Positions 7,136-62,344 of a DNA stretch of 64,000 bases are shown piece after piece. Every line of letters begins with the position of its first letter. The first letter of the stretch is position 1. Made by a program: the position numbers and the translations under genes. Source of the DNA: a virus (taxonomy: Duplodnaviria > Heunggongvirae > Uroviricota > Caudoviricetes); the IMG/VR virus record IMGVR_UViG_2925891887_000001. One strand, 5' to 3'. The notes below the pieces were generated by a model. It was not told the origin of the DNA and ran no database searches. It worked only from the letters and a program-made list of their open reading frames with translations.

Positions 7136-7249
7136 TCGTAAGACATGCCAGACCTAATTAAACACCCCAGAAAACAAGTTGGTTAGCAGATGCAGTAAAC
7201 AAGTTGTTTTAGAGCGCATGGACGCGCTCTGTGTGTTTTAGAGGGATCT

Positions 7250-7882
7250 ATGACGGTCGAAAAAGACGAGGTAAAAACTCGCCTGACACCAGCGGAGTGG
7301 GCCGAAGCTGAAGCCAAATGGACGTCAGGCGAATATACACTCTCAAAGCTGGAGGAAGAGTACGGCATTCGTCGTGAAACACTCTCCAGACATTTCAAAA
7401 AGCGAGGATTAGAGAAAGGCGCGGACTCTGTTGGGAAGATGGTTCGTGAGTCTCTTAAATCTGACGCAGAGCTTCGCGCTAAAGCCCGTGCGGAAAAGAT
7501 AGAAGAACGTCGTACACGTTATGACGGCTGGGCGTATGCGTTGGGGCAGATGGTGATGGTCGAAGTCACTACGGCCAAACGTGAGGGTAAGCCTTTAGGG
7601 GCGATTGAGGATTCTCTCAAGAGCTTACAGAGAGCCAGTAATACCCTTGCAAAATGCTTTGAAGTTTCGTCCAAAGCATTGGGCATGGATCATGCGGAAA
7701 ATGACGAGGAAGAAATTCCGAACCTGGTATTTGGTGAGCTTACGCCTTCCCAGGTGGCGAAATTACGTCAGGAAGACGACGAGCCTGAAATCATCGATGA
7801 CGAATTGCTTGAGACGTTGGAAGAAGAAGCTCTAAGCGAATTTGATGCGACAGATGATGGAAGTGAAGGGGAGGACGAATAA
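7250..7882 (+). CDS. Terminase small subunit (putative)
   Basis: Immediately upstream of large terminase; N-terminal HTH-like segment (YGIRRETLSRHF), acidic C-terminus; GAGG RBS. Confidence 0.6.
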   Translation: MTVEKDEVKTRLTPAEWAEAEAKWTSGEYTLSKLEEEYGIRRETLSRHFKKRGLEKGADSVGKMVRESLKSDAELRAKARAEKIEERRTRYDGWAYALGQMVMVEVTTAKREGKPLGAIEDSLKSLQRASNTLAKCFEVSSKALGMDHAENDEEEIPNLVFGELTPSQVAKLRQEDDEPEIIDDELLETLEEEALSEFDATDDGSEGEDE

Positions 7883-9138
7883 TGGCAATCCCGTCCTCGC
7901 TCAGTCTTGTGCAACTGCATTCTGGACAGATGAAAGTCTTCCAGTCTCCGCATCGATTTAAAGTTGTTTGTGCTGGTCGACGCTGGGGAAAATCCCGGTT
8001 GTCGATCTCCACTATTATTCGTGCGGCGGCAAAGGAAAAAAAGCAAAGGGTCTGGTATGTCGCTCCTACTTACCAGATGGCTCGCCAGATTTTGTGGGAC
8101 GATCTACAGGAAGTTCTGCCTCGTAAGTGGGTTAGGAAAAAGAACGACACCACGATGACAATCGTGTTGAAGAACGGTTCGGAGATCGCCCTCAAAGGTG
8201 CTGATAAGCCTGACACTCTGCGCGGCGTAGCGTTGCATTTTGTAGTGCTTGATGAATTTCAGGATATGAAGGCTGACACCTGGTACAAGGTGTTACGACC
8301 TACTCTTTCATCGACACGCGGCGGTGCACTGATCATTGGTACGCCAAAAGGCTTCTCGGAATTTCACAAACTGTGGACTATAGGCCAGAACGTAGAGCTG
8401 CAAAGAAAGGGACAGTGGAAGAGCTGGCAGTTTGTAACTGCCGATTCTCCGTTTGTGCCTACGGCGGAAATTGAAGCTGCTAAGAACGATATGGACCCCA
8501 AATCGTTCGCTCAGGAGTACCTGGCCAGCTTTGAGAACATGTCCGGGCGCGTTTACTACCCGTTCGATCGTAACGTGCATGTAAAACCGCTTCAGTTCAA
8601 CCCTCGGTTGCCTATATGGGTAGGGCAGGACTTCAACATTGACCCGATGTCTTCAGTAATTTTGCAACCTCAGCCAAATGGTGAGCTATGGGCAATTGAT
8701 GAATTGGTGCTCTTTTCCTCTAACACGGCAGAAGTTTGTGATGAGCTTGAGAGACGCTTCTGGCGCTGGAAATCACAGGTAACGGTATTTCCAGATCCGG
8801 CAGGTGCTTATCGCCAACATGCTCGTGGGGAGTCTGACGTAGACATATTCAAAGAGAAGGGATTCTTACGTGTCGATTATTCGAAAAAGCACCCGCCAAT
8901 TGCGGATCGTGTTAATGCTGTTAACCGAATGCTGATGTCCGCATCTGGAGATATCCGGCTGTATATCGATCCGAAGTGCAAGCATTTGATTGATTCACTG
9001 GAAAAAGTCATCTACAAGCCTGGAACACGAGATATGGATAAGACAGGTGGCATTGAGCATAGTGCAGACGCATTGGGCTATCCAGTACATCGTAGGTATC
9101 CAGTCAAAAACCGTGTTATTCTTGGTGGTTCTCGATAG
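7882..9138 (+). CDS. Terminase large subunit
   Basis: Walker A VVCAGRRWGKS, Walker B-like VLDEFQDM, C-terminal nuclease-like region; 418 aa. Confidence 0.85.
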   Translation: MAIPSSLSLVQLHSGQMKVFQSPHRFKVVCAGRRWGKSRLSISTIIRAAAKEKKQRVWYVAPTYQMARQILWDDLQEVLPRKWVRKKNDTTMTIVLKNGSEIALKGADKPDTLRGVALHFVVLDEFQDMKADTWYKVLRPTLSSTRGGALIIGTPKGFSEFHKLWTIGQNVELQRKGQWKSWQFVTADSPFVPTAEIEAAKNDMDPKSFAQEYLASFENMSGRVYYPFDRNVHVKPLQFNPRLPIWVGQDFNIDPMSSVILQPQPNGELWAIDELVLFSSNTAEVCDELERRFWRWKSQVTVFPDPAGAYRQHARGESDVDIFKEKGFLRVDYSKKHPPIADRVNAVNRMLMSASGDIRLYIDPKCKHLIDSLEKVIYKPGTRDMDKTGGIEHSADALGYPVHRRYPVKNRVILGGSR

Positions 9139-9164
9139 GTAAGTAATTATCTAAGGTTATTCAA

Positions 9165-10739
9165 ATGGAATTGAACGACAAACAAATTAAGGATCTGGTG
9201 GCGCGACGCCACCCGGAATACGAAAAGAAAAAAGAACATTGGGACTTCCTCGCCAGCACTTACGCTGGCGGGCGTGGTTGGTTTACAGACAATATCTTTC
9301 GTTACTTTAAAGAGGGAGATCAGGAGTTTAAGGAGCGAGTTGAACGTGCTTATCGCTTCAACCACACTCGTGAGGTGGTAAACCTCATCAACAAATATCT
9401 CTTTAAAGAAGACATTCATAGAAATATCGAAGAGGCACCAGAGCAGATCCGCAATTTCTGGAAACGTGCGACTCGCCAGAATGCCTCTATTGACTCATTT
9501 ATGGCCGCTATTGATTTGCAGTCGTCTATTTACGGTCGCATATGGGTTGTTGTCGATAGCACGATGAGTGGTGATGTTGAGTCAGTAGCTGACGAGAAAA
9601 AGAAAGATGCTCGCGCCTACGCCTACTGGATTTCACCTCAGCAAATGCTGGATGTGGCATGGGACGACGACGGGAATATGTTGTGGGCGTTAATTGTGGA
9701 AGTCGCTCGTGATGACGCAGATCCTTTTACTTCTACAGGTCAGGAATACCAACGTTATCGTCTGTGGACACAAAACGAGTGGTATCTGTTCCGTGAGGAA
9801 GTGAAGAAGGGCGCTGGTGGAGCAGGTCGCCGTCAGGCAAAAGTTATTTTAGAGGATAGCGGTGAGCATAATCTCGGCGTAGTTCCTGTGTTTCCTGTTG
9901 ATTGTATTGGAGAAAGTGAATCACCGTATTTCAGCCCATCGTTGATCGATGATATCGCTTATCTTGATCGTGCGGTTGCAAACTATCTGTCAAACCTTGA
10001 TGCCATTATTCAGGATCAGACATTTAGCCAGTTGGCTATACCGGTACAGTCGCTTTTACCTGGTGATGAAAACCACACTAAAGTGCTTGAAATGGGCACA
10101 AAGCGAGTCTTCACCTACGATTCTGAAGGTGGAAACCAGCCGTTTTATCTGTCACCAGACCCGAAACAAGCTCAGATGATCATCACTACGATTAAGACGG
10201 TGATTAACGAAATCTACCATTCAGTTGGTGTAGCTGGTGAGCGAACGAAGCAGGACAACGCACAGGGAATCGATAATTCATCTGGTGCCGCAAAAATGTA
10301 TGACTTCCAGCGTGTAAATAGCTTGCTTGTCACAAAAGCAGAGCGTCTGGAAAGGGCTGAACGCCAAATCATGCTACTGGTTGCGAAATGGATGGGGGCA
10401 GATCTGGACGAAGACCACTCTTTAATTGCGTATCCAGAAAGTTTCGATATTCGTGGCCTTACTGATGAATTTTCTGTTGCCGAGAAACTGTCATTACTTC
10501 AGGCACCGGACTCTGTACGTCGTCACCAGATGGAAATGCTTATTGAGAAGATTTTCCCGAACATTACTGAGGCGATGAAAAAGGAATTTGATAAAGATCT
10601 CTTGAATTTTCCTCCAAAAAATGATCTAAATACCCTTGAAAATAAGTCAGTACTTACTTATGATCGTGGTGCAGCCCAAGAAAGCGGGCAAGATCAACCC
10701 CGAGGGAATGGGGACTCATCTACTCAAGAGAACGAGTGA
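9165..10739 (+). CDS. Portal protein
   Basis: 524-aa protein directly after terminase; size and position typical of portal. Confidence 0.7.
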   Translation: MELNDKQIKDLVARRHPEYEKKKEHWDFLASTYAGGRGWFTDNIFRYFKEGDQEFKERVERAYRFNHTREVVNLINKYLFKEDIHRNIEEAPEQIRNFWKRATRQNASIDSFMAAIDLQSSIYGRIWVVVDSTMSGDVESVADEKKKDARAYAYWISPQQMLDVAWDDDGNMLWALIVEVARDDADPFTSTGQEYQRYRLWTQNEWYLFREEVKKGAGGAGRRQAKVILEDSGEHNLGVVPVFPVDCIGESESPYFSPSLIDDIAYLDRAVANYLSNLDAIIQDQTFSQLAIPVQSLLPGDENHTKVLEMGTKRVFTYDSEGGNQPFYLSPDPKQAQMIITTIKTVINEIYHSVGVAGERTKQDNAQGIDNSSGAAKMYDFQRVNSLLVTKAERLERAERQIMLLVAKWMGADLDEDHSLIAYPESFDIRGLTDEFSVAEKLSLLQAPDSVRRHQMEMLIEKIFPNITEAMKKEFDKDLLNFPPKNDLNTLENKSVLTYDRGAAQESGQDQPRGNGDSSTQENE

Positions 10740-10760
10740 TAAGTAACAAAAGGAATTTTT

Positions 10761-11648
10761 ATGAATCTGTGGCAAATGCTTTTGGCCCGTCGTGGTCTGA
10801 TGGATGTCGCTGAAGCGCATGAGCGTGGAGGCGCTGGCGGTGTAGCTGCTGATAATGAGCAGAGCACACAAGATCCTGACAAACAGGGTGAACAAAAAGA
10901 GCAGCCGAAGGGCGATGACGAATACGCTGGCATGACTCAGGAAGAGTTACTGGCCGAACTTCGTAAAACCAAGAAAGCTGGTGCTGAACTGCTGAAGGAG
11001 AACATGAAGCGCAAAGAGAAAGAGCGCACATTGGCCGATCAGCTTGCTCAGTACGGTGATATCGACCCGGCGCGTGCTCGCCAGCTTTTAGAAGCTGAAC
11101 AGGCCGCAGAAAATGCACGTCGTGAGGCGGAGCAAGCTGAACTGGAGCGTCGTGGTGAGTTCGATGCTGTTAAAAAACAGATGATCGAAGCACACCAGGC
11201 AGAGCTGGCACAGCGTGACGAACGTTATACAGCACTGGAAAGTGAAAACGCATCACTGAAATCTCAATTAGTCGAGATGACCGTGGGCGCTTCCTTCAGT
11301 AACTCTCTCTTCCTACGTGACAAAGTTCTGATGACCCCGGCAAAAGCCCGCGTGATCTACGGTTCTCATTTTGAAGTGGGTGAAGACGGTAGCGTAGTGG
11401 GTTATGACAAACCGGCAGGTCATAAAGAACGAGCTGTTCTGGTTGACGGTGAAGGTAAGCCGTTGCCGTTTGAATCCGCGATTGAACGCATTGTGCGGGC
11501 AGATCCGGAAGCTGACGCATTGATGCGTAGCGAAGCCAAGCAGGGTGTAGGCTCACATTCCAAATCGACCTACACAATATCCCAACCGAAGAACAAGTCG
11601 ACTATGGATAAGTTGGCCTCCGGTCTGGGGAAAATTGGACTTAAGTAA
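10761..11648 (+). CDS. Scaffolding protein (putative)
   Basis: Charged, coiled-coil-like sequence (EAEQAAENARREAEQAELERRGE) between portal and capsid genes. Confidence 0.55.
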   Translation: MNLWQMLLARRGLMDVAEAHERGGAGGVAADNEQSTQDPDKQGEQKEQPKGDDEYAGMTQEELLAELRKTKKAGAELLKENMKRKEKERTLADQLAQYGDIDPARARQLLEAEQAAENARREAEQAELERRGEFDAVKKQMIEAHQAELAQRDERYTALESENASLKSQLVEMTVGASFSNSLFLRDKVLMTPAKARVIYGSHFEVGEDGSVVGYDKPAGHKERAVLVDGEGKPLPFESAIERIVRADPEADALMRSEAKQGVGSHSKSTYTISQPKNKSTMDKLASGLGKIGLK

Positions 11649-11673
11649 CATCTAAATCAAAGGGAATTGATAG

Positions 11674-12549: not shown

Positions 12550-12583
12550 TCAGTGTTGTAGATAAGTAATTATCTATGTTTAA

Positions 12584-12609
12584 GGGTGGGCTATACGCCC
12601 ACCCTTTTT
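12584..12609 (+). terminator. Rho-independent terminator after capsid gene
   Basis: gggtgggc-tata-gcccaccc stem-loop followed by TTTTT. Confidence 0.75.
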
Positions 12610-12622
12610 GTAGGAGCAAGAA

Positions 12623-13543: not shown

Positions 13544-13587
13544 CCGATATTGGGCGGCGAAAGCCGCCCAAGAGGAGAGAAAGCGTT

Positions 13588-38025: not shown

Positions 38026-38783
38026 TTGGTCAGGCGAACAGATTAATCCCTGAAATAGAAGACTACAGCAAGGTCTTGTCTGAAATGCCGAGAGCGACGA
38101 GAATTATCGCTCTCGGTGAGTTCTATTTTATCTCCCGAGGTTTCGATCTAATTCGATTTACCGAATACGAGCTTGTTGATTCGGCCTATGAACGCTGTAT
38201 TGTTGGCGAGTGTCTTGAGTCATGTGATCCTGATTACCAAGAGCAGGAAGTTAAGCGACTCAAACGTGCTGGTTACACACCTCTTGAGATAGGAGCAGAA
38301 ATTGAATCCTACAAGTTGCATGTGGGGCAGCCAGTCCAAACAGTCTTCCGCGTGGCCTACTGCGAGTTTCCAATCAAGGATAAATCTGGAGTAAAAGTCA
38401 GCGCCAAGCAGATTAGAGGGGTTTTTACTCATGCTGATTATATGGGATTAGGCATCGCAAGTTTTGCTTACCTTTATCTCGTAGATAAGTATCAGTACTT
38501 GGTTTGCGATACGTTACAGACGGTAAAAGGCGCAACTCTTTGGGCTGTGAGTATGCGCAAACATGGACTGGTCGAAATTTACGATACGAAGAACGAAAAT
38601 TTTATAGAGGAATTGGGTGAGGATGCCTGTGGCGTAAGTGGTTTTATTCCGTGGGATATCGGTAAGTCTGACGGAGGCCAGATGCGAAGACGTGAAGAGT
38701 GGGGGACTAATAAAATCAATCTCACCCCAGGTGCTTGTACTCATATAGTGAACATTCTGACTAAACGATCTATGAATCAATAA
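38010..38783 (+). CDS. Hypothetical protein
   Basis: 257-aa ORF from track; followed by intrinsic terminator. Confidence 0.35.
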   Translation: MAPSLIGQANRLIPEIEDYSKVLSEMPRATRIIALGEFYFISRGFDLIRFTEYELVDSAYERCIVGECLESCDPDYQEQEVKRLKRAGYTPLEIGAEIESYKLHVGQPVQTVFRVAYCEFPIKDKSGVKVSAKQIRGVFTHADYMGLGIASFAYLYLVDKYQYLVCDTLQTVKGATLWAVSMRKHGLVEIYDTKNENFIEELGEDACGVSGFIPWDIGKSDGGQMRRREEWGTNKINLTPGACTHIVNILTKRSMNQ

Positions 38784-38805
38784 ACCCGCTACGGCGGGTT
38801 TTTTG
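38784..38805 (+). terminator. Rho-independent terminator
   Basis: acccgc-tacg-gcgggt stem followed by TTTTT. Confidence 0.7.
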
Positions 38806-38932
38806 TTATTAAGCCCCCCCTATGTACCTATCATTAAACCTTTACACCGCAGCCGTAGGCATTTAGGCTATATCACATATAAGAAAACAAGTTGTTTCAG
38901 ACGATAATTATATACGCAAAGGGAACTCTCCA

Positions 38933-40011: not shown

Positions 40012-41718
40012 ATGGAATCGATAGAAGTATTTTTAAAAAATTTTTTGGACTCAGATCATCGGGTTGCTGTCATAAAAGGAAATTGGGGAGTAGGTAAAAC
40101 GCATTATTGGAATAGCTTTTATACTAAACATTCTAAAAAATTAGATTTTAATGCATATTCATATGTTTCTTTGTTTGGAATAAATTCTATTGGAGACATT
40201 AAAAAAGCTCTTTATCATTGTGCCACACCAATTAATGAAAAGAAATATAAAGAACTGATTTTATCTGAAACGGATCGAACTATGATTCGTTATAGAAATG
40301 GGTTTTGGGGATGGTTGAAATACAACTCCTTGTCAAAATTTATAATACATTTTGGAAAGAACGATTTTTTTGGGTTCAAAACTGATAATCTGCTGTCATC
40401 TCTTGAGTATAAATTTGTTAATAATTATTTGGTTTGCATTGATGATATTGAACGAAAAGGTAGTGCGCTAGAAATTAAAGAGATTATGGGGGTAATTGAT
40501 GAGTTGGCAAGAAGAAAAAATTGCAAGGTTGTTCTAATATTAAATGAAGATAACTTACATGAAGAAACTGCACAACAACAGTTTTTAGAGTATAGAGAAA
40601 AAATAATTGATGTGGAAATAAAATACGATCCCACGCCTGAGAAAAACTTAAGAAAAGTTTTTTATGAGACTGACCCTGATTTTCTTTTGTTAAAAAACCT
40701 AGCAAATGATTTAAACATCAAAAACATTAGAATATTAAATAAAATAAAATCATCTCTAGTTATATTTAGAGATGTGCTAAAGTTAGCAGAGGATAAGGTT
40801 AGAGAAAGTTTTATTAATAGATTGGTCTTATTTTCAGTGGTTTACTATTTTGGTGTTCCTAGCGTTGATTATGCTTCATTTAAGGAGTCAATCAAAAATA
40901 TACATGCATTCGACTATATGTTAGATGATAAAGATGAAAAGGAAGAAGTTAACTCTGTATATTCATTTGTTAATAGCCTTGATGTTATTTATGAACGAGC
41001 AGAAAGTGCTTTCGATGATGATATAGATTTTTACCTTAAGAACGGTTATGTTTCTTCTGAAAGCAATATTCTAAATATAATAAAAGAAAAAAATGAACAA
41101 TATAGAGATAATAGGGTTTTATGTGAGGTTTATAAAATTTGGGATGTTTTTAGAAACTCTTTTAAAGATAATGAATCAGAGTTTATTTTTCAAATTGAGC
41201 GCGTAATTAACGATAGTCTGTTGCGTATACCAATTGGACAGTTCGTAGGTTTAATAAATGTCCTAATTAAATTGGATAGAGATTGTAATAATATTATAGA
41301 GGCATATGCAGATGCTTTTGTTAATAAAGACAATGCGTATGCTACATTTAATTCTTTGCGAGTAGAGATCTTCGGAAATGAAGAATTAGGTTTCAGAATT
41401 GAAAAAAAATTGAAAGATAGAAATCCAGATGACTATAACTTAGATAAAATTATAAAAAAAATAGCTGGTGGAAGATTTAACCATAGTGATGTGAATATTC
41501 TTAACAGTTTTTCTAAAGATGATTACGTAAACTGGATATTATCCTGTGATCAGGATGCTTTGAATTTAGTAGAAGAGACTATGCTCAAGTTCAAGGGTAT
41601 GCAACACCCGACAGACGAACAGAAGAGCATCACTGATAAAGCAATAGAAGCTTTGGAGGAAGTTGCTTCAAAATCAACACTTAATAAGCTGCGTGTTAAT
41701 AAAATACTCAATCATTAA
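40012..41718 (+). CDS. KAP-family P-loop NTPase-like protein, low-GC cargo gene
   Basis: Walker A GNWGVGKT and Walker B LVCIDDIER about 120 aa later (KAP-like spacing); strongly AT-rich versus flanks; bracketed by hairpin 39962-39990 and palindrome 41728-41785. Confidence 0.55.
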   Translation: MESIEVFLKNFLDSDHRVAVIKGNWGVGKTHYWNSFYTKHSKKLDFNAYSYVSLFGINSIGDIKKALYHCATPINEKKYKELILSETDRTMIRYRNGFWGWLKYNSLSKFIIHFGKNDFFGFKTDNLLSSLEYKFVNNYLVCIDDIERKGSALEIKEIMGVIDELARRKNCKVVLILNEDNLHEETAQQQFLEYREKIIDVEIKYDPTPEKNLRKVFYETDPDFLLLKNLANDLNIKNIRILNKIKSSLVIFRDVLKLAEDKVRESFINRLVLFSVVYYFGVPSVDYASFKESIKNIHAFDYMLDDKDEKEEVNSVYSFVNSLDVIYERAESAFDDDIDFYLKNGYVSSESNILNIIKEKNEQYRDNRVLCEVYKIWDVFRNSFKDNESEFIFQIERVINDSLLRIPIGQFVGLINVLIKLDRDCNNIIEAYADAFVNKDNAYATFNSLRVEIFGNEELGFRIEKKLKDRNPDDYNLDKIIKKIAGGRFNHSDVNILNSFSKDDYVNWILSCDQDALNLVEETMLKFKGMQHPTDEQKSITDKAIEALEEVASKSTLNKLRVNKILNH

Positions 41719-41727
41719 TAGATTATG

Positions 41728-41810
41728 ACCTGCTTCCGTATGTATTTAATAAGTTACTTATTATTTGTATATACAGAAGCAGGTCTTTTAAAGACGCCCA
41801 CCAGAACAAG
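41728..41810. repeat. Near-perfect palindrome; inverted copy of element at 7055-7135
   Basis: gacctgcttccgtatgtatttaataagttacttattatttgtatatacagaagcaggtc; reverse complement matches 7078-7135 with about 2 mismatches. Confidence 0.8.
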
Positions 41811-42640: not shown

Positions 42641-42683
42641 CTAATACTAGAAAACAATTTGTTTAAAAAACAAAGGAAAGCAC

Positions 42684-44105: not shown

Positions 44106-45287
44106 ATGAGCCTTTATGTTATATCAACATTTAGGTTGGTCACAATATTGCCTGTTAAAAGTGGAATTATCGTGAGCGAGCTGAAAGAGCTAATTGCCGA
44201 ATTAGATTTTGAACAATGGTTGGATACTGAAGGTATCGTTTATCGACGTGGAGGCGTGAGTGCTCGCGGTCGTGAAGTGAATATCAAAGAGTGTCCGGTA
44301 TGCGGCAGCTCCAACTGGAAGGTATATTTCAATCTGACCAGTGGCGTCGGCAAATGCTTCGCTGGTGATCATCCCGAAGAGATTCAGTTCAATAAGCTGG
44401 TCTTCCTCAAGCACTACAGCGGTAAATCACGACGACAGTTCGAGGAATATGTGCAGAACGCTCTTCTTTCCCAGGGGTGGACACCAAAGAAAGAAGAGCT
44501 AGTGCTTGCAAGCACAGTCGAGTTAGAGGGGCCAGTTGCACTCCCTCGTCATTACGAGCTTCCTATAGATGGCCGTCTTCCAGACTATCTGGTTGAACGA
44601 AACATATCACCTGAAATGGCAAAGTATTTTGACCTACGATACTGCGTCGAAGGCAAGCACGCTTATGTAGATCCGTATACAGATCAGGTAAAAGGGCAGA
44701 TATTCGATATGCGAATACTGATACCGGTTTACGATCTGGATGGGGTAATGAAGACATTTCAGGGACGAGACATTACCGGTACAGCAGAACGCCGCTACCT
44801 CTTTCCTATGCAGCTTCCAGCTTCAGGTAAATTTCTCTACAACGGCCATAATGCAGTCGGCAAACAGACTGTAGTTGTCTGTGAGGGTTCGTTCGATGTT
44901 ATGGGGGTCAAACGAGCTATTTTCGACGAAGAAACATTACGTGATTACGTGGAGCCAATAGGAACGTTCGGGATGCATCTATCTGGCAACACCACTCAGG
45001 ATGCAGAAGATCAGTTGGGCGCGTTCCTGACGCTCAAGGCGCGTGGATTACGTAATGTGATCATGATGTGGGATAGTGAAAAGCAAGCTATACGAAACAC
45101 GATGGCCGCAGCCAGGCGACTGACCAGTATTGGTCTTAATGTCAAAGTTGCGTGTTTGGGCGAGGAAGGACTCGACCCCGGCGATGCGACACCGGGGCAG
45201 ATTATCAAAGCCTACTATTGCGCAAAACCTTATTCACGACAGCTTGAACTTTTAAGCAAGGTAAAAGGTATAGCAGCATTAGTTTGA
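44106..45287 (+). CDS. DNA primase (zinc finger + TOPRIM)
   Basis: Zn-binding-like CPVCGSS...KCFAGDH; TOPRIM motifs VVVCEGSFDVMGV and MWDSE; track ORF starts 44034 but includes a hairpin, so start is probably 44106 or 44173. Confidence 0.7.
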   Translation: MSLYVISTFRLVTILPVKSGIIVSELKELIAELDFEQWLDTEGIVYRRGGVSARGREVNIKECPVCGSSNWKVYFNLTSGVGKCFAGDHPEEIQFNKLVFLKHYSGKSRRQFEEYVQNALLSQGWTPKKEELVLASTVELEGPVALPRHYELPIDGRLPDYLVERNISPEMAKYFDLRYCVEGKHAYVDPYTDQVKGQIFDMRILIPVYDLDGVMKTFQGRDITGTAERRYLFPMQLPASGKFLYNGHNAVGKQTVVVCEGSFDVMGVKRAIFDEETLRDYVEPIGTFGMHLSGNTTQDAEDQLGAFLTLKARGLRNVIMMWDSEKQAIRNTMAAARRLTSIGLNVKVACLGEEGLDPGDATPGQIIKAYYCAKPYSRQLELLSKVKGIAALV

Positions 45288-46532
45288 ACCAGTATTAGTC
45301 ACGTAAACATTGACCGAAAATGATTTAACTTCTGTGTTGAAGTTGTCAGTCATTACCGCGAGGTAGGCATTCTTGGTATCTCTGAATTGCTTCAGGATGA
45401 TTTGAACGTTATCGGTGCAAACAAACGAGGTAGCCAGATTGCCTCCTTTCTCTGAAAAATCCTTCAAGAAGGTGCAGTCAACTTTGCCATCATTAGCGGT
45501 GAAGACGGCATCATCACCCTGCCAGGTAAATGTTGCGTTAACGCCTTTATCAATGGATTTAGCAATAAGTCGCTGAGTGTCAGATTTGGCATTTTGCTGT
45601 TTTGAAGGCGAACGGAACGTACCTTTTGCTTTCATTGCAGCAACGTTTTCGCAGCCCGTTTCGTCATCTTTATCGCAAGCAGCTTGGTAAAGCTCTGATG
45701 CTTTCCGATAATCCTGTTTGACGCCCAATCCCTTAAGATACATGTAACCAAGGTGGTTCATGGCATAATCATTTCCTAAGCTGATTGCTTGTTCTAAAAG
45801 ACTTCTGGCCTTCGAATAGTCTTTTTTTATACCTTCTCCATGCATCAACTTGTATCCAAGCGCGCTCATGGCGTTATTATTTCCTAATTCAGCTGCTTTC
45901 AAGTACCACTTAATTGCCTCTTTATTGTTGCGCTTAACAGCAACACCATCGTCGTACATAGAGCCTAGCCCATACATTCCTGCGGCATTTCCACTATCCG
46001 CAGCCTTTTTATAAGATTTAAATGCTTTCTTGTAATCTTTCGGAACTCCCTTACCGTATTGATATAAATATCCCATATAGGCAAGCGAAGGTATATCACC
46101 AGCTTCTACTGCTAGTTTGTGATATTTTAAAGCAGCTTCTGGGTCCTCCTTTCCAGTCCAACCTCGTTCGTATATAACGGCAAGATTATGGTAAGCACTG
46201 CCGTTGCGAGCATTTCCTGCTAGTTTGTAGTACTCAACGGCCTTATTTAGATCTTTATCTACTCCCTTCCCAATTGTGTACATAACCCCAAGCGCATAAT
46301 ATGCTACTTTATCTCCCTTTTCTGCGGCGAGATCGATCCACTTCTTGGCCTCTACTAAATCCTCATCAAAGCCATTAGCCCCATCCAAATAATTTGTCCC
46401 TAACGCACTTTGTGCTGTGGTATCTCCTGCGGTGGCGGCGTCGATCAGCGTTTGTTTATTATCTGCGTTAACGTATCCAGGGCCGAAAAGCAAAGCTAAT
46501 GCCAGCAACGATGAAGGTTTTATGAGTTTCAT
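45279..46532 (-). CDS. Sel1-repeat (TPR-like) secreted protein
   Basis: Signal peptide (MKLIKPSSLLALALLFGPGYVNA), then at least 8 Sel1-like repeats (A..YxLGxMYxxGxGVxxDxxxAxxWYxKAA); only minus-strand gene in this block. Confidence 0.7.
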   Translation of the reverse strand: MKLIKPSSLLALALLFGPGYVNADNKQTLIDAATAGDTTAQSALGTNYLDGANGFDEDLVEAKKWIDLAAEKGDKVAYYALGVMYTIGKGVDKDLNKAVEYYKLAGNARNGSAYHNLAVIYERGWTGKEDPEAALKYHKLAVEAGDIPSLAYMGYLYQYGKGVPKDYKKAFKSYKKAADSGNAAGMYGLGSMYDDGVAVKRNNKEAIKWYLKAAELGNNNAMSALGYKLMHGEGIKKDYSKARSLLEQAISLGNDYAMNHLGYMYLKGLGVKQDYRKASELYQAACDKDDETGCENVAAMKAKGTFRSPSKQQNAKSDTQRLIAKSIDKGVNATFTWQGDDAVFTANDGKVDCTFLKDFSEKGGNLATSFVCTDNVQIILKQFRDTKNAYLAVMTDNFNTEVKSFSVNVYVTNTGSN

Positions 46533-51527: not shown

Positions 51528-51602
51528 GATGGTGTAGCTCAGCGGTAGAGCAGTTGGCTGTTAACCAACTGGTCGGTGGTTCGAATCCACCCACCATCGC
51601 CA
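51528..51602 (+). tRNA. tRNA-Asn (anticodon GTT)
   Basis: Manual fold: acceptor gatggtg/caccatc, D-arm tagctcagcggtagagca, anticodon loop ctGTTaa, T-loop ggttcgaatcc, encoded CCA. Confidence 0.8.
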
Positions 51603-51607
51603 ATTTA

Positions 51608-51694
51608 GGGGAGTTAGTCCGTAGAGGTAGCGGTGTAGACTGTAAATCTACTGTCATGGCGACTCGGGTGGTTCGACTCCATCACTCCCCACCA
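51608..51694 (+). tRNA. tRNA-Tyr (anticodon GTA), long variable arm
   Basis: Acceptor ggggagt/actcccc, anticodon loop ctGTAaa, long variable arm, T-loop ttcgact, encoded CCA; D-arm pairing weak. Confidence 0.7.
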
Positions 51695-51698
51695 AATT

Positions 51699-51774
51699 GC
51701 CGGTTTAGCTCAGTTGGTAGAGCAGTCGCTTTGTAAGCGAATGGCCAGCGGTTCAAGTCCGTTAACCGGCACCA
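51699..51774 (+). tRNA. tRNA-Thr (anticodon TGT), tentative isotype
   Basis: Acceptor gccggtt/aaccggc, D-arm tagctcagttggtagagca, anticodon loop ttTGTaa, T-loop ttcaagt, encoded CCA. Confidence 0.7.
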
Positions 51775-54266: not shown

Positions 54267-55370
54267 ATGAAAAATAGCTTTGACAGAGCACGCGCTGCGG
54301 AGAACACCTCAAAAGAGGCGATTGAGTATCTCGAAAGAGCATCTCAAATGCAGGCCGTTATGATCTCGCAGGTCAGCAATGACATGAGATTCTCGGACGC
54401 ATTCATGTTATTCACTCGCTTATCTCTGCTGATAACAAGACGTCGGCCAGAGATCGCTGTTCATTGTATTTTGATACATGTTTTGCCGCACATTGCCGAT
54501 GTAAAAGTAAGTGACATTAATAGGTTCATGGTGAACCAACTGGTCAACCCACTAATACTGGATGGCAAAATTGTTATGGGCCGCCGCGTTTTCTCTCTGA
54601 TGAAGCAGTTCCTTAGCTGGTGCGCCTTCCAGGGGATGATAGACGTGTCACCGTTAAACGATATGTCACTAAACAAAGTTGCCGGTGGCGCAAAGCCCAC
54701 ACCTCGCGAGCGGAAGCTGACCGACGCAGAGGTATGGGTGTTCTGGAATATATGGGACTACTTCAATGTGTGCGCTGGTACAAAATGGGCGGCCAGGCTG
54801 TGTCTTGTATCCGCAAGACGACCTGACGAAGTACTGCGGGCTAAAAAAAGTGAGTTCAATCTTAAGCGTGGGGTTTGGAATCAAGGCAAGAGGAACAAAT
54901 CTGCCCGTGAGCATTCGCTGCCTTTAAGCACATTAATGCGCACATGTATTGAAGAGTTGTTCGAATACGGTAAAGGCAGCCAGTGGCTCGTGCCTTCGAA
55001 TAAAAAAATCGGGAAAGACCTTCCTATGTCTAAAGTGGCAATAGCCCAGGCATTACGTCGTATCCTGGAACGACCAGAACTGATGGAGCTTGAGCCATTT
55101 ACACCCCGAGACTTGCGCCGTACTGCGCGTAGTTACTTCCCAGCATTAGGCATAAGCCAGGAGGTCTCACGCAAAATCATGAACCACAGTCTTGAGGGGA
55201 TAGATCGAGTCTACGACCGGCACGATTATATGGACGAGATGCGAGACGCCTTAGAAAGTTTCTCGACGTACATCGCATCAATCGTAGAGCAACCGGATTT
55301 AGACGAAATTGACCACAAATTCAAGGGAGATCGTCTATCAACAGAGCTTATTCGTGTAAATTTTTCATAG
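54267..55370 (+). CDS. Tyrosine recombinase / integrase family protein
   Basis: C-terminal catalytic region with conserved Arg (LVSARRPDEV), box II-like PRDLRRTARSY, then NHSLEGIDRVYDRHDY with candidate catalytic Tyr; 367 aa. Confidence 0.65.
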   Translation: MKNSFDRARAAENTSKEAIEYLERASQMQAVMISQVSNDMRFSDAFMLFTRLSLLITRRRPEIAVHCILIHVLPHIADVKVSDINRFMVNQLVNPLILDGKIVMGRRVFSLMKQFLSWCAFQGMIDVSPLNDMSLNKVAGGAKPTPRERKLTDAEVWVFWNIWDYFNVCAGTKWAARLCLVSARRPDEVLRAKKSEFNLKRGVWNQGKRNKSAREHSLPLSTLMRTCIEELFEYGKGSQWLVPSNKKIGKDLPMSKVAIAQALRRILERPELMELEPFTPRDLRRTARSYFPALGISQEVSRKIMNHSLEGIDRVYDRHDYMDEMRDALESFSTYIASIVEQPDLDEIDHKFKGDRLSTELIRVNFS

Positions 55371-55751
55371 AGACTTTATGGCCTCAACAACCTTTTGTGA
55401 TGCGCCTTTCTCTTTACCGAATCGCTCGTTATATGCAGCAAGAACCTGTTTTTCGTCCTCGTTAAGAGGAGCGGTGCCTTCTTTGTATAAAAATGCTGCG
55501 AGTTCAGGTTGGCGTTCTTCCAGCACCATCATCATAAGACGACTTGGCTCAATACCCAGCGCCAGCGCCAACGGACGAACCTTATCGATAGGCAAAGGAA
55601 TTTTGCCACTTTTAATTAAAGAAAGGTTGTTGGCATTTTTATAACCAATAAGTCTGGCTATTTGGGCCTGACTCATAGGTGAGGATTCAATCAGCCCTGC
55701 GATAAAAGCGGCATAGCGACTTTCTATAAATTCAATCTTGTTGTCAGACAT
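55365..55751 (-). CDS. XRE-family HTH transcriptional regulator (repressor-like)
   Basis: HTH segment SQAQIARLIGYKNANNLSLIKSG; 128 aa; divergent from 56002 ORF, with palindrome GGTAAGTGCTTACC about 32 bp upstream of its start. Confidence 0.65.
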   Translation of the reverse strand: MSDNKIEFIESRYAAFIAGLIESSPMSQAQIARLIGYKNANNLSLIKSGKIPLPIDKVRPLALALGIEPSRLMMMVLEERQPELAAFLYKEGTAPLNEDEKQVLAAYNERFGKEKGASQKVVEAIKSL

Positions 55752-56001
55752 TGTTACAACCTTTGCGCGTTCAATTCTCTCTGGTAAGTGCTTACCGATA
55801 TTACATCAAAGGTTAGGGTTGTAAAGCTATTATCATTTTTTCGATAGGCACTTAAAAGACCGGTTAAAGGCCATTGCACGGAGAAAAATTAGCCCAAAAC
55901 AGGTAAGAAAATTAACTTGCATATGATATGAATGTATTCAGTATTGATATAAATTTTAGTAGTATTCCTTACCATAGTATAAGTTAGAATGGATTGATTG
56001 A

Positions 56002-56214: not shown

Positions 56215-56312
56215 CCCCTCTTCTCCCTGCGCGAATGGCTTAGTTCCCTGTTCGCGCAGTGCTACATTAAACACACTAGTAAATAATTTGTTTTCATAAC
56301 AAAGGATTAGCC

Positions 56313-58421: not shown

Positions 58422-58516
58422 ACAAAACAGCCTTAACGATAAGTAACCACTTACGATATATAATGATATATTTATATAAGAAGTTGAACGCTCATTAGAG
58501 AACAAAGGAAAAACGC

Positions 58517-59752
58517 ATGACGACTACTGCACTGCAAAATGAAAAAAATCCTTCTGATTACCTTGTTTGCAAGTGGTGCGGCAAATCATTTCACTATTTT
58601 AAGTCCCATGTAGCCAATGGTAATTGCGAGGGCATTCCTGAGTCAGTAAAAGATGCCGATCCTGACACCGTACTGAAAATGTACACAACGCAGTTTCCAG
58701 ATGAACCAACGCTATCGAAAAAGGCACTTGATGCAATTCAAGCTAAACGTGCCGAGCAAAAAAGCGAAATGGCCAAATCTTCTGGCTTGACCAGTAGCCC
58801 TGGCTACACAGGCACAGTTGAGTACAAGACAGATCTGGTCGCAGCTCACGAACTGCTAAACGTAACAGTGGAAGAACTCGGAACAAAACGTGGGACGCCG
58901 CTCATGGTTAGCGTCAACGTCAATACGCCGTATCCAGAGTTCGTTCCCGAAGTGAAGAAAGGCTACGTATATGGCGACTTCGAACTGATCAAAGATATTT
59001 TCATGATGCTTGAACTTGGCATACCTGGCTATTTGTGGGGTCATGCAGGAACAGGCAAATCGTCATTGCCTACACAGCTATGTGCTTTGCTCAATCGTCC
59101 GTTGATCCGTGCCCAACATACAGCATCAATGGAAGAGGCACATGTTACGGGGCAAATTCTGGCGCGTGATGGCTCTACGTATTTCGAACCTGGCTTGCTT
59201 GCGCTCGCAATGAAGCATGGCTGGGTTTACCTCGCGGATGAATACGACTTTGCGTTTCCACAAATTCTTGGCGTGTATCAGCCAGTGCTGGAAGGTGAAG
59301 CGTTGGTCATCAAAGAGGCAACTCCAGAATGGCGTCGCATTACTCCGCATGAACGGTTTGCTTTCATTGGCACTGGCAACACGAACGGATCTGGTGATGA
59401 AACCGGCTTGTACCAGGGTACAAACATCCAGAACGCCGCGAACTTTTCGCGTTTTGGCATCGTTTCGAATGTGAAATACATGAGCAAAGACGCAGAGATC
59501 AACATGTTGACAAATGCAGGCATCGTGGATGAATACGCTGAAAAGATGGTTAAGTTTGCCGGTATCGTTCGCGATGGATACGAAGAACACCTCATTAGTC
59601 AGCCAATTGGCCCTCGTGAACTTTTGTTGTCGGCCAAGATTGGAATGATGCGAGGCGACTTTGTGACAGGTATTGAGCGTTCTTTCATTAACAAACTCCC
59701 TTCAGCTTCTGCACAAGCGGCTCGTGAAGTTGTTCAAAAAATATTTGGTTAA
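58517..59752 (+). CDS. AAA+ ATPase (CobS/MoxR-like)
   Basis: Walker A GHAGTGKSS, Walker B VYLADEYDF; 411 aa; paired with downstream-facing VWA protein. Confidence 0.7.
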   Translation: MTTTALQNEKNPSDYLVCKWCGKSFHYFKSHVANGNCEGIPESVKDADPDTVLKMYTTQFPDEPTLSKKALDAIQAKRAEQKSEMAKSSGLTSSPGYTGTVEYKTDLVAAHELLNVTVEELGTKRGTPLMVSVNVNTPYPEFVPEVKKGYVYGDFELIKDIFMMLELGIPGYLWGHAGTGKSSLPTQLCALLNRPLIRAQHTASMEEAHVTGQILARDGSTYFEPGLLALAMKHGWVYLADEYDFAFPQILGVYQPVLEGEALVIKEATPEWRRITPHERFAFIGTGNTNGSGDETGLYQGTNIQNAANFSRFGIVSNVKYMSKDAEINMLTNAGIVDEYAEKMVKFAGIVRDGYEEHLISQPIGPRELLLSAKIGMMRGDFVTGIERSFINKLPSASAQAAREVVQKIFG

Positions 59753-59754
59753 TC

Positions 59755-59958
59755 GTGCGTAAAGGATGTTTCGGCTCTCTTATCGCTGCTTCTGAAACTG
59801 GTAAGGCTTGTCTGGTGTGTCCAGACAAGCCCGATTGTCACCAATCAGCAAAAGAAGTTGCGATTTCGATGCATGGGAAGTTCGTAGGCTTCCCCAATGA
59901 CAAAATCAAAAAAACCAGAAAGGTAAAAACACATGAAGGCACTGATGGTTCGAACTGA
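59755..59958 (+). CDS. Hypothetical small Cys-rich protein
   Basis: 67-aa ORF (GTG start) between CobS-like and polymerase genes; weak support. Confidence 0.25.
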   Translation: MRKGCFGSLIAASETGKACLVCPDKPDCHQSAKEVAISMHGKFVGFPNDKIKKTRKVKTHEGTDGSN

Positions 59959-62296
59959 CTTCTCACTTGGGGAGTCGGCTCTAAAAGCAGAAAACGCGGT
60001 GAAGATTGCCAGAGAAGCTGGCTACACCGCTGTAATTTCAGCAGATAGCATGAATATTGCGAGCGTTATTCCACTACAACGTGCCGCTGGTGACGACATG
60101 GCGGTTATTTGTGGTGTGAAACTAAACATTGTTGATGATCCCACATACGAGCACCGGGCTAAACTTGCTAAAGAATCTATGAGATGTATGGAATCATTAG
60201 AGCGAGGACGTAACTACTCGTTTACCGCTCTAATTAAAAATGAGAAAGGATATCGCGACATCTGCGAACTAATGACGGCGGCCAACACACGAGAACAGTT
60301 CTACTTTGTACCGCGTCTCTCGCTCGAACAGTTGGTTTCTACATATGCCAAAGGCAACATCATCCTGCTTACTTCCGACATCGGTAGCGTGTTCCAACGC
60401 AACGATTTTGCAAAAATCATAAGCACACTGATTACAGCGGGTGGAAAAGACAACTTCTATAGTGTGGTTTATCCGCACCCTACCCCATTCTACGACCAGA
60501 TTAACGTCCGGGCGATGAAAGTCGCCAGCGCATTGAAAATAGAGCCAGTGGCGTTCTATCCCGCTTATTACGAATCGATCGACGATGCAGACATTAAAGA
60601 CATTGCGCACATGGTTACGAACAACATCAAAATCGACCAGCCGCATCGTCTGCGTATCCCCCACCAGCGAGATAACGCCGTCAATGGTCGCCGCCATCTC
60701 CTTGAGGCGCTTAAAGCCTTCTCCGTTCGCATGGATGTGCCGGTAACAGCTGCAATGGCCTCAACAACGCAGGATACCATTATCGATGCCTGCACATGGC
60801 GCTGGCATGAATTGCCGCCAGCACTGCCAAAGATGGCAGACGACGAGCCTGCAACGCTGATGAAACTGGCTGTTGCAGGGCTGCGTAAACGTCTTACCAC
60901 AAAAGAGTTTGGCTACACACCACCTGCTTCTGAGAACAGGGTTTATGTTGAGCGGCTAAAGTACGAAATGGACACGCTGACTCGCCTGGGATTCTGTGGT
61001 TACTTCCTGATGGTGCGCGATCTGATGAATCATAGTCGTGAAACTGGCATTCCCGTTGGGCCTGGTCGTGGTTCCTCTGCCGGTTCTCTGGTGGCGTGGT
61101 GCATAGGCATAACCAACGTCGACCCAATCCGTCACGGTCTTCTGTTTGAGCGTTTCATCAACCCTGAGCGTCTCGACTTGCCGGATGCGGACTTGGACTT
61201 CAGCCAGGCACGTCGCCATGAGGTGATCGAGTATCTGAATGAACGCTACGGCGAAGATTACGTTGCAGGCATTCCGAACTTCACCTACCTGGGCGCAGCC
61301 TCTGCACTACGTGATACCGCTCGTATTTATGGTGTGGAGTCCGCAGATATGGCGGTATCAAAAGAGCTGAAGAACGTCGAGGATGATAGCCTTCCATTGG
61401 AGGAGCTGCGCGAACAACTGGCAAGTCTCGACAAATACGCAACAAAATATCCTGATGCATTCAATGCAGCCTGCAAGTTACAAAGCCTTATGCGTGGCTT
61501 TGGTAGACATGCGGCAGGGATGATCGTAGCAGGTGTTCCTCTGACAGAACGTACACCGGTTGAACGCCGTGGTGACGCGCGTTGTATCGCATTTGACAAG
61601 CGTTACTGCGAGGCTATGGGCCTAATTAAGCTGGACGTGCTTGGCCTGGCAACTCTCGATTTGCTCGATAGTGCAAAACGCTACATAAAAGAGAACACAG
61701 GTGAAGATATCAATCTTGATGCCATTTCTCTTGAAGATCGCAAGGTGCTGGATGGTTTTGCTGCAGGGTATACACAGGGCGTATTCCAGCTTGAATCAGG
61801 CCCAATGCGCAAGCTGCTTAAAGATTTAGGTGGTGGAATTGAGCCAATGAGCTTTAAAACGGTCGTCGCTACAACTGCGCTCTTCCGACCTGGCCCGATT
61901 CAATCCGGCATGTTGGACGATTATGTGTCCGTGGCCAAAGGCTTCATGGCCCCACATTCCTTACACCCAATGCTGGACGACATCTCTCGCGACACAAACG
62001 GAGTTCTGATTTATCAGGAACAGATCATGGCTGCTACGCGAATCTTGGCGGGGTTCTCAATGGCGGAAGCAGACTCGGTCAGGAAAGCGATCGGGAAAAA
62101 AGATATGGAGAAAATGAAATCCATTGGCGGCGACTTCATTAAGCGAGCGGAGGAAGGCTGGGTGACAGTGTCACTGGATGATGGTTCTACGAGAAAAATC
62201 CATAAAGCAGCACGCCTACTTTGTGCTGATGGTGAGCGTCGCACTTATGCCGAAGCAATGGCAATAAATGCCGACATAACGAGCTTCGATATTTGA
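59933..62296 (+). CDS. dnaE: DNA polymerase III alpha (DnaE-type), N-terminal segment ending at interruption
   Basis: Degenerate PHP-like N-terminus, palm motifs GPGRGSSAGSLVAWCIGIT and PDADLDF, FRPGP fingers motif; about 43 codons before the stop stop resembling DnaE. Confidence 0.85.
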   Translation: MKALMVRTDFSLGESALKAENAVKIAREAGYTAVISADSMNIASVIPLQRAAGDDMAVICGVKLNIVDDPTYEHRAKLAKESMRCMESLERGRNYSFTALIKNEKGYRDICELMTAANTREQFYFVPRLSLEQLVSTYAKGNIILLTSDIGSVFQRNDFAKIISTLITAGGKDNFYSVVYPHPTPFYDQINVRAMKVASALKIEPVAFYPAYYESIDDADIKDIAHMVTNNIKIDQPHRLRIPHQRDNAVNGRRHLLEALKAFSVRMDVPVTAAMASTTQDTIIDACTWRWHELPPALPKMADDEPATLMKLAVAGLRKRLTTKEFGYTPPASENRVYVERLKYEMDTLTRLGFCGYFLMVRDLMNHSRETGIPVGPGRGSSAGSLVAWCIGITNVDPIRHGLLFERFINPERLDLPDADLDFSQARRHEVIEYLNERYGEDYVAGIPNFTYLGAASALRDTARIYGVESADMAVSKELKNVEDDSLPLEELREQLASLDKYATKYPDAFNAACKLQSLMRGFGRHAAGMIVAGVPLTERTPVERRGDARCIAFDKRYCEAMGLIKLDVLGLATLDLLDSAKRYIKENTGEDINLDAISLEDRKVLDGFAAGYTQGVFQLESGPMRKLLKDLGGGIEPMSFKTVVATTALFRPGPIQSGMLDDYVSVAKGFMAPHSLHPMLDDISRDTNGVLIYQEQIMAATRILAGFSMAEADSVRKAIGKKDMEKMKSIGGDFIKRAEEGWVTVSLDDGSTRKIHKAARLLCADGERRTYAEAMAINADITSFDI

Positions 62297-62344
62297 GAAT
62301 TAATTTATAAGATAAGAAAACAATTTGTTTAGTGAGTCTTAGAA

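Follow-up and report, generated by a model that had tools for sequence, protein, structure and literature searches.

In phage P1, the operators of a single repressor, C1, have an asymmetric 17-bp consensus (ATTGCTCTAATAAATTT) and are scattered over a phage-plasmid of ~100 kb, in which they overlap the promoters of dispersed operons, including one with a gene for a DnaB-type helicase (ban). In plasmid RK2, the KorB operator OB (TTTAGCSGCTAAA) is a 13-bp palindrome with one central base, present in about a dozen copies and centered near -39 in class I promoters, and one factor serves the genes for replication, partition, and transfer/propagation. The MarR family acts as dimers on short palindromes over -35, -10, or +1, blocking polymerase at one efflux or stress operon. 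Global repression of the IncP plasmid RK2/RP4 through KorA and its operator OA has also been described (PMC2665229), while FljA, the phase-1 flagellin repressor (PF03614), acts at the 5' UTR of fliC and is reported to block translation of the fliC mRNA (PMC2652032; 10.1101/2025.10.27.684867).

The DNA analyzed here (referred to as the window) comes from an SSU5/pHCM2-like phage-plasmid of E. coli, of which it covers 64 kb. It contains a recurrent palindrome, AAACAA-N-TTGTTT, to which one repressor specific to this family most likely binds. To our knowledge, the control of the ~100 phage genes in the plasmid state of SSU5/pHCM2/pMT1-like elements is essentially uncharacterized; in the searchable literature, we found no description of this motif, no paper with its sequence, and none on operators of these elements. 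As in P1, the copies are associated with dispersed operons of a phage-plasmid, one of which encodes a DnaB-type helicase; however, the core found here (AAACAANTTGTTT) is a perfect 13-bp palindrome of a different sequence, and the fixed predicted positions at -38 and +14 (see below) are particular to the SSU5/pHCM2/pMT1 family. OB has the same 6+1+6 shape and a similar position (near -39 versus ~-38 here), but only these two features are common: the sequences are unrelated and RK2 has no +14 class. Two ParB_N proteins encoded by the SSU5-like element are further candidate binders, but nothing connects these ParB-like proteins with the motif.

Copies of the palindrome in the window

The following sites were found (bits are scores of the position weight matrix described below).

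7169..7186, + strand: copy 1 (AGAAAACAAGTTGGTTAG), core 7172-7184 with one mismatch (AAACAAGTTGGTT), first of a pair in the terS leader; 26.9 bits
7194..7211, + strand: copy 2 (AGTAAACAAGTTGTTTTA), exact core 7197-7209, 25 bp past copy 1 and abutting the hairpin; 26.0 bits
7210..7241, + strand: terminator-like hairpin (AGAGCGC-ATGGAC-GCGCTCT and a T run) between copy 2 and the terS ribosome site
38882..38899, + strand: copy 3, exact core 38885-38897, in the parA leader; 26.6 bits
42649..42666, + strand: copy 4, exact core 42652-42664, in a 43-nt gap, 19 nt 5' of the ATG of the DnaB-like helicase gene; 30.1 bits
56278..56295, + strand: copy 5 (AGTAAATAATTTGTTTTC), core 56281-56293 with one mismatch (AAATAATTTGTTT), before the CobT-like gene (56313); 21.1 bits
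62315..62332, + strand: copy 6, exact core 62318-62330, 14 nt 5' of the HNH endonuclease gene; 29.3 bits

A preliminary description of this DNA gave the motif as GAAAACAA-N2-TTGTTT, which was incorrect: the core is 13 bp, with an odd length and a single central base. All five copies reported there were recovered, with coordinates off by a few bases at most, before the genes named (terS-like, ParA, DnaB-like helicase, and HNH endonuclease), and the "ataag" noted in front of two copies was seen at 38880 and 62313. The tandem pair before terS does consist of two copies, the first of which is imperfect, while copy 5, 19 nt 5' of the CobT-like gene, had been overlooked.

Four exact cores were present in the 64-kb window, where 0.01 would be expected by chance, and this number was never reached in 100 shuffles; two further copies had one mismatch. 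Using a position weight matrix trained on 24 sites from two related genomes, the six sites scored 21-30 bits, and the next best elsewhere scored 12 bits (+ strand) and 16 bits (- strand). The motif did not occur at a similar density in coding sequence: all six copies were intergenic, with intergenic DNA making up 12% of the window (P = 3e-6). The palindrome is, thus, real and far beyond chance. Each of the six had the asymmetric extension AGAAAACAA, read on the strand that codes for the gene 3' of it, and the start codon of this gene followed at a distance of about 15-41 nt. The copies before dnaB and the HNH gene occupy gaps of just 43-48 nt between co-directional neighbors.

Copy 1 was kept in most lineages, and some relatives lacked a 25-bp unit containing one copy of the pair in the alignment. 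The adjacent hairpin (-15.2 kcal/mol; z = -3.1) had compensatory changes in a distant relative (GAGCGC/GCGCTC to CGGCGC/GCGCCG), and is part of the late-operon control region. Orthologues of copies 4 and 5 were found in SSU5 (34385 and 42729, respectively), and that of copy 4 also in LR890700 (17120). The HNH endonuclease gene behind copy 6 interrupts dnaE; in LR890700, dnaE is likewise split and the gap holds a palindrome copy, with the HNH gene missing. A structured RNA element or intrinsic terminator formed by the palindrome itself was not supported: as RNA, the motif gave -0.5 to -0.7 kcal/mol (z ~0), its variants in NZ_CP113488.1 and SSU5 were single-sided without compensation, and no Rfam family matched it.

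Distribution in the family and position relative to predicted promoters

Complete relatives (NZ_CP113488.1, SSU5, and LR890700.1) had 18-20 copies each at ≤1 mismatch; carriers of this number comprised E. coli plasmids, phage SSU5, and one distant Klebsiella plasmid, and 15-16 of the 18-20 copies per genome were intergenic in four complete genomes (P ≤ 5e-10). Five copies were found in a 40.5-kb segment of Y. pestis pMT1. AAACAA-N-TTGTTT was the commonest 6-N-6 palindrome even in Klebsiella plasmids with 25-65% protein identity, and was unchanged in Escherichia, Salmonella, Klebsiella, and Yersinia elements and a Nissabacter-type contig, with most proteins deeply diverged. In the genomes of relatives, the genes that follow most copies are those of nucleotide metabolism and small early genes with no known function. 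Since the window holds only six of ~20 copies, the initial view of the sites as specific markers at the start of the packaging, partition, and replication units was too narrow.

Promoter positions were all predicted from sequence. Among 89 unique contexts, -10-like hexamers showed two peaks relative to the palindrome center: -20 (18 cases, 11 with TGn) and +31 (23 cases, 20 with TGn), placing the center at ~+14 (class F) and ~-38 (class R) of the predicted promoters, respectively. Class R promoters contain TGn and GATAAT with no recognizable -35 element, and class R copies, which predominate in Klebsiella lineages, would be outside the transcript because they are 5' of the promoter to which they are spaced. 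Several promoters carry both the +14 and -38 copies, 51 bp (five helical turns) apart. In front of two genes (the DUF4942 gene and one encoding 160 aa), E. coli elements have the palindrome at +14, but in LR890700 the orthologues have it at -38. Spacing was fixed relative to the -10 element and not to the start codon, with the -10 register differing by 1-2 nt between copies; 20/20 copies had a T 14 nt 5' of the core start, a position that the search pattern did not include. The distance from the end of a class F copy to the ATG is 11-40 nt, and the Shine-Dalgarno sequence often begins 2-4 nt after the copy; copies of some relatives that end 11-15 nt before the ATG leave no room for a -10 downstream.

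All six window copies had the class F form. They are placed before genes, as first described, but not as generic upstream sites: they belong to the 5' leader, 3' of the predicted -10, which is a repressor position. For parA, the likely promoter consists of TTTACA (38841-38846), a 17-nt spacer, and TAGGCT (38864-38869), with the palindrome center at a predicted ~+15; the block from the -35 element through the ATG was conserved and the sequence 5' of it was not, and a terminator (38782-38801) lies directly 5' of the block. Copy 5 was 19 nt 3' of the last T in an extended -10, TGcTACATT (56260-56268). A strict -35/-10 scan upstream of the window copies flagged nothing, and the dnaB, HNH, and terS copies had no convincing -10 at the expected offset. 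The flank was asymmetric in the E. coli/SSU5 lineage, with AGA on the 5' side only, and this was not kept in LR890700; an AGA flank on one side is not explained by a symmetric dimer. Phage late and middle activators use sites upstream of the start, near -22 (the P1 Lpa repeat) and near -30 (the T4 MotA box). An upstream activator site at -22 to -30 was not supported by the observed centers (+14 and -38), and the short distance to the ATG (15-41 nt from the end of the window copies, 11-13 nt for some copies of relatives) leaves no space for a -10 on the 3' side.

Operator reading and its alternatives

Many dispersed copies, restricted to where separate operons have their promoters and lying at a constant distance from predicted core promoter elements within the polymerase footprint, are what a global repressor's operator set would show. 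We infer binding by a protein and a repressive effect, and estimate a probability of roughly 0.55 that the palindrome is a DNA operator, with ~20 sites per genome, read by one dimeric regulator of the SSU5/pHCM2/pMT1 family that represses inside the RNA polymerase footprint. Each copy would lie within the footprint of a sigma-70 promoter, usually of the extended -10 type: class F in the initial transcribed region and class R in the place of the -35 element. A protein on either position would block polymerase binding or promoter escape, and, thus, one factor would negatively control the replication, nucleotide-metabolism, partition, small early, and packaging operons together. The terS copies are far 3' of the likely promoter and beside the terminator hairpin, such that the bound protein may function there as a roadblock or attenuator partner. 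The swap of orthologous genes between +14 and -38 fits one repressor within the footprint, and a single regulatory sign at both positions points to repression. Although the parA operon has a copy, Cyrano lysogens express genes immediately behind parA (PMC9928086), suggesting that any repression of this operon is partial. The earlier proposal of a dyad for a dimeric DNA-binding protein stands as the best-supported reading, favored by the fixed -10 spacing, the copies outside the transcript, and the absence of an RNA fold; its binder is at the level of candidates.

One factor with two signs, activating from -38 in place of the missing -35 element and repressing from +14 in an early-to-middle switch, appears unlikely. 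The architecture of class R promoters would suit it, as would a palindrome near the position of class II activators, which bind at about -41.5, and class F positions can only repress; however, extended -10 promoters need neither a -35 element nor an activator, an exchange of +14 for -38 copies on orthologous genes would reverse their regulation, and both copies coexist on several promoters. We consider it improbable that the motif is an RNA operator in 5' leaders, bound by an FljA-like protein in a post-transcriptional regulon like that of T4 RegA. The gene for a PF03614 protein (E = 1e-80; Hfq/LSM similarity weak) lies ~150 bp beyond the window start and belongs to the core genes of the family (834 PLSDB records), the 5' flank is strand-specific, and the location of class F copies just 5' of the ribosome site resembles that of CAAGTTGT, an 8-mer of the motif core 19 nt before the ATG in the Salmonella fliC leader. 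Nevertheless, the site matrix ranked the fliC leader outside the top matches in every 8-kb fliC locus, the class R copies dominant in Klebsiella lineages are outside the transcript and, thus, not in sense leaders, the spacing follows the -10, and the FljA-like protein falls to 25-34% identity without any change in the motif. An equally improbable variant is that the same 13 nt are read twice, as DNA by a winged-helix repressor and as RNA, in ~15 leaders, by the FljA-like Sm-fold protein, a core-gene product of all family members; translational control across the genome, as by T4 RegA, would then be superimposed on transcriptional control, with a possible link to host flagellin.

The constancy of the motif across elements of several genera despite protein divergence might also be expected if a conserved DNA-binding protein of the Enterobacterales hosts, and not an element protein, read it. 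This is very improbable: we know of no E. coli regulator consensus (CRP, FNR, Fis, IHF, LexA, KdgR, PurR, Zur, Lrp, NrdR, and others) that fits AAACAA-N-TTGTTT, and the element encodes an equally conserved, family-restricted winged-helix protein. It is more doubtful still that there is no dedicated binder and that a promoter/leader module was kept by descent, with TTGTTT as a weak -35 at long spacing and the unstructured, A/C-rich leader as a translation enhancer. Promoter cassettes are clearly paralogous (e.g., AAYAATTTGTTTTCYRCCTT..TGnGAWAAT) and the leader ACCAACAAGAA is shared even without the palindrome, but descent explains poorly a strict 6+1+6 dyad with a free central base at two positions, on both promoter sides, in distant lineages with changing flanks; moreover, TTGTTT is 19 nt from the -10, beyond the usual 16-18 nt.

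Candidate regulators and significance for the family

Two proteins encoded in the window were considered as readers of the putative operator.

6788..7054, + strand: 88-aa winged-helix protein, directly 5' of the terS double site
55365..55751, - strand: XRE-type HTH "putative repressor", homologue of CYRAN_45

The 88-aa protein is the best candidate, the FljA-like and XRE proteins being weaker, and its assignment as the regulator is tentative. Its AlphaFold2 model (pLDDT 80.7, pTM 0.71) had MarR-family DNA-binding domains as best Foldseek matches (TM 0.7-0.78), whereas the Pfam match to the LexA_DNA_bind winged-helix model was insignificant (E = 0.072). The residues of its putative recognition helix (TxKQSxQFSxR) were invariant, and the protein, found in SSU5-like elements only, retained 74-89% identity in the most distant relatives, in which the FljA-like protein had 25%. 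Although the predicted DNA-binding fold is that of MarR, the candidate is shorter (88 versus ~140 aa), is without ligand-binding or long dimerization helices, and would govern ~20 promoters. No motif copy was found before its own operon, and it was absent among the genes listed as expressed in lysogens (PMC9928086). The XRE protein is less likely: it is missing from phage SSU5, though SSU5 keeps the motif, its LR890700 counterpart has 46% identity over 71 aa only, and in its control region the palindrome, at 55783, is a different one (GGTAAGTGCTTACC), with AAACAA copies absent.

SSU5/pHCM2/pMT1-like phage-plasmids are very common, with >800 PLSDB records matching their structural genes, in E. 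coli, Klebsiella, Salmonella, Enterobacter, and Yersinia pestis; the family includes the plague plasmid pMT1, and some members carry resistance genes (blaCTX-M-15 in the reference relative). The motif provides a sequence signature for recognizing family members and their promoters. It also outlines a candidate regulon, in which ~20 promoters follow a clear geometry and few proteins come into question as regulators, making the lysis/lysogeny and plasmid-maintenance circuit of these elements directly testable.

The AAACAA palindrome in the window and across the family

All five copies listed in the preliminary description were found at their places (7172 and 7197 before terS, 38885 before parA, 42652 before dnaB, and 62318 before the HNH endonuclease gene), but the half sites were separated by a single central base, AAACAA-N-TTGTTT, instead of the two proposed there. 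A sixth copy, overlooked earlier, was located at 56281 before a CobT-like gene and carried one mismatch, as did the copy at 7172; exact copies numbered 4, against 0.01 expected. The extended form AGAAAACAANTTGTTT was present in 6/6 copies, always in the orientation of the downstream gene. When the motif scan that had been suggested as a check was performed using a position weight matrix derived from two related genomes (24 sites), the six sites were clearly set apart (21-30 bits vs ≤16 bits anywhere else in the window). A similar density in coding sequence, named beforehand as an observation against the motif, was not seen: 6/6 copies were intergenic (P = 3e-6).

The copies in the window are only part of a larger, family-wide set. 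NZ_CP113488.1, a complete and closely related E. coli plasmid, contained 9 exact and 11 one-mismatch copies, and phage SSU5 contained 11 and 9, respectively, at orthologous places (the terS pair, parA, dnaB, the cobT-like gene, nrdB, and a run of small early genes). Twenty copies were detected in LR890700.1 (a complete, distant Klebsiella plasmid) and 5 in a 40.5-kb segment of Y. pestis pMT1, and 2-12 were carried by each of the 50 sufficiently long viral contigs retrieved around the FljA-like gene. In the four complete genomes analysed, 15-16 of 18-20 copies were in non-coding DNA, which accounted for 12-15% of the sequence (P ≤ 5e-10). The motif was also the commonest 6-N-6 palindrome in Klebsiella plasmids whose proteins share just 25-65% identity with the window's. 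When IMG/VR was scanned for AGAAAACAANTTGTTT, the matches were mostly single chance ones, plus clusters on ~100-kb SSU5-like contigs. Ten small genes downstream of sites were annotated, and all belonged to PHROG families of unknown function.

Judged from its matches to ~110-kb E. coli plasmids (99.5-99.9% identity), the phage-plasmids Cyrano and PhiR41_1 (~97%), and Salmonella phage SSU5 (82%), the window is 64 kb of an SSU5/pHCM2-like phage-plasmid; 821 PLSDB records were related elements, from Klebsiella, Escherichia, Enterobacter, Yersinia (pMT1), Salmonella, and others. It contained a virion module, lysis genes, parA, dnaB with primase, a ligase, three tRNA genes, an integrase with an XRE repressor, CobT/CobS-like genes, and a split dnaE, together with the following:

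40012-41718, 568-aa ORF of low GC (0.31) between the parA operon and the dnaB module
45279-46532, minus strand, Sel1-repeat protein gene after the primase gene
51528-51771, three consecutive tRNA genes

The first two look like accessory insertions because they were missing or different in close relatives, where alignments covered only 60-77% of this stretch. At the place corresponding to the tRNA genes, Cyrano has annotated Asn, Thr, and Ser tRNAs. The gene for DNA polymerase III alpha (dnaE) was interrupted: an N-terminal part of 787 aa with PHP, NTPase, and finger domains (59933-62296) came first, then a free-standing gene for an HNH endonuclease (62345-63079), which has a motif copy of its own, and the start of the C-terminal part (from 63076) overlapped the HNH stop codon as ATGA. 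dnaE was intact in SSU5 and Cyrano (1172 aa), and was split at the same place in LR890700, with the HNH gene absent and a motif copy in the gap.

The terS region and a second palindrome

3634-7054, highly conserved operon upstream of terS
7073-7131 and 41722-41790, TAAGT..ACTTA palindromes (also 3620, 10643, 15341, 16138, 50381, 50761, 58440)
7210-7241, terminator-like hairpin and T run, directly before the terS ribosome site

The operon encoded two ParB_N proteins, an ABC-type ATPase, and 84-aa, 299-aa, and 88-aa winged-helix proteins; in the most distant relative, the ATPase was 86% and the 299-aa protein 81% identical. Alignment of the terS region across lineages revealed a common order: a AATAAGTnACTTATT palindrome by TATATAC, a variable stretch, one or two AAACAA copies depending on the lineage (a 25-bp unit was missing in some), the hairpin with its T run, and the ribosome site. 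The hairpin, the pairing of which was maintained by compensatory changes, suggests that the late operon is controlled by attenuation or antitermination. The AAACAA copies are, from this layout, probably well inside the leader, where a protein bound to them would serve as a roadblock or work jointly with the terminator.

TAAGT..ACTTA formed a second recurrent family (TAAG-N6-CTTA, seven times in the window), and is probably the palindrome described as the first in the preliminary description. It included two ~55-bp near-perfect inverted repeats, CCTGCTTC-GTATATAT-AATAAGTnACTTATT-ATATATAC-GAAGCAGG, which precede terS and the dnaB module, respectively. The family may be a marker of late promoters, of an origin, or of a pac-type site.

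Predicted promoter geometry and probable mode of action

In an ungapped alignment of 20 copies anchored on the core, a T located 14 nt upstream of the core start, outside the search pattern, was invariant and had A-rich positions on either side. Early genes typically showed the context TGcGATAAT-waacaccaaca-AGAAAACAAnTTGTTT-aaGGAG-ATG: an extended -10, ~13 nt, the palindrome, and the ribosome site. Six genomes supplied 89 unique contexts, in which -10-like hexamers piled up 20 nt upstream of the palindrome centre (18 cases, 11 with TGn) and, in a second peak, 31 nt downstream of it (23 cases, 20 with TGn), from which we infer centres at ~+14 in the 5' leader (class F) and at ~-38 (class R), respectively. 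All copies in the window had the form of class F; class R prevailed in the distant Klebsiella lineage, e.g. CGTAAACAACTTGTTTACTgcct-N12-TGgGATAAT. Several promoters carried one copy of each class, 51 bp apart, and the class was switched between lineages for the DUF4942 gene and a 160-aa gene: +14 in E. coli elements vs -38 in LR890700. In a strict scan for sigma-70 -35/-10 pairs, none of the window copies had a canonical promoter upstream.

The proposal that the dyad serves a DNA-binding protein gained support from this spacing and from the properties of the motif as RNA, while the binder itself is represented only by candidates. The -10 element to which a class R copy is spaced lies downstream of it, which leaves the copy outside the transcript made from that element. 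The motif as RNA had essentially no fold (~-0.6 kcal/mol, z about 0), which, together with one-sided variants without compensation and no Rfam match, ruled out an RNA hairpin or terminator. The distance to the start codon led to rejection of an Lpa- or MotA-type upstream activator box: several class F copies ended only 11-15 nt from ATG and, therefore, cannot be activator boxes for a -10 further downstream. A phage RNA polymerase promoter was also rejected because the 787-aa ORF is N-terminal DNA polymerase III alpha, and no RNA polymerase was annotated in any relative. A dual activator/repressor is possible, but the regulation of orthologues would then flip between lineages. The simplest reading is a single protein that acts with the same sign whichever edge of the polymerase footprint it occupies; such a protein would be a repressor.

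Candidate regulators and kind of system

6788-7054, 88-aa winged-helix protein
55365-55751, minus strand, XRE HTH protein
55752-56001, control region that separates the divergent genes for the XRE repressor and a 70-aa protein
55783-55796, perfect 14-bp palindrome GGTAAGTGCTTACC in this control region
CP056250.1 72624-73148 (locus L129 625-1149), FljA homologue (PF03614, E = 1e-80), just outside the window start

The FljA-like protein is a core gene product of SSU5/pHCM2/pMT1-like plasmids (834 PLSDB records), and its binding of the motif at the RNA level is an attractive alternative: FljA, the repressor of phase-1 flagellin, blocks translation of fliC mRNA (PMC2652032), and the Salmonella fliC leader contains the same 8-mer, CAAGTTGT, at a similar distance from ATG. 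However, this candidate was downgraded because the site matrix left the fliC leader unranked and class R copies are not within leaders; furthermore, identity of the protein fell to 25-34% with the motif unchanged. The XRE protein, a "putative repressor" expressed in Cyrano lysogens (CYRAN_45; PMC9928086), is core to plasmids of the family, in which the FljA-like and XRE genes were both near-universal, but was judged unlikely as the binder. SSU5 alone lacked the XRE/integrase module, yet kept the motif; the homologue in LR890700 was only 46% identical over 71 aa; and the control region of the XRE gene in the window had a different palindrome, with related GGTAAG/CTTACC half sites, and no AAACAA copy. 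This region looks like an immunity switch apart from the AAACAA regulon. Co-variation between motif and regulator was uninformative because the motif was unvaried in every lineage examined.

The AlphaFold2 model of the 88-aa protein was a winged helix (pLDDT 80.7), with MarR-family DNA-binding domains as the closest solved folds and an invariant putative recognition helix. The protein was confined to the SSU5-like family and retained 74-89% identity in the most distant relatives, below only the large terminase among the proteins compared; its gene ended 115 nt before the terS double site. It is the best fit among the candidates and may be the binder, on circumstantial grounds and at odds well short of even.

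The searchable literature yielded no description of regulatory sites in SSU5-like elements and no occurrence of the motif sequence, and sequences given only in figures would escape such a search. The logic is similar to that of phage-plasmid P1, with its dispersed C1 operators, and of RK2, where KorB and KorA operators form a network. OB of RK2 is likewise palindromic, 13 bp long around a single central base, and in class I promoters it lies near -39. A structure of KorA is available in PMC2665229. The present motif differs from the P1 C1 and RK2 sites in sequence, the feature that defines each of them, and belongs to neither family. On the evidence of its distribution and spacing, AAACAA-N-TTGTTT is a real motif, strongly non-random and coupled to promoters, which as a probable operator defines a candidate regulon shared across the family, and the system is predicted to be of the kind with a global repressor and dispersed operators, in which both the regulator and the sign of regulation are predictions.
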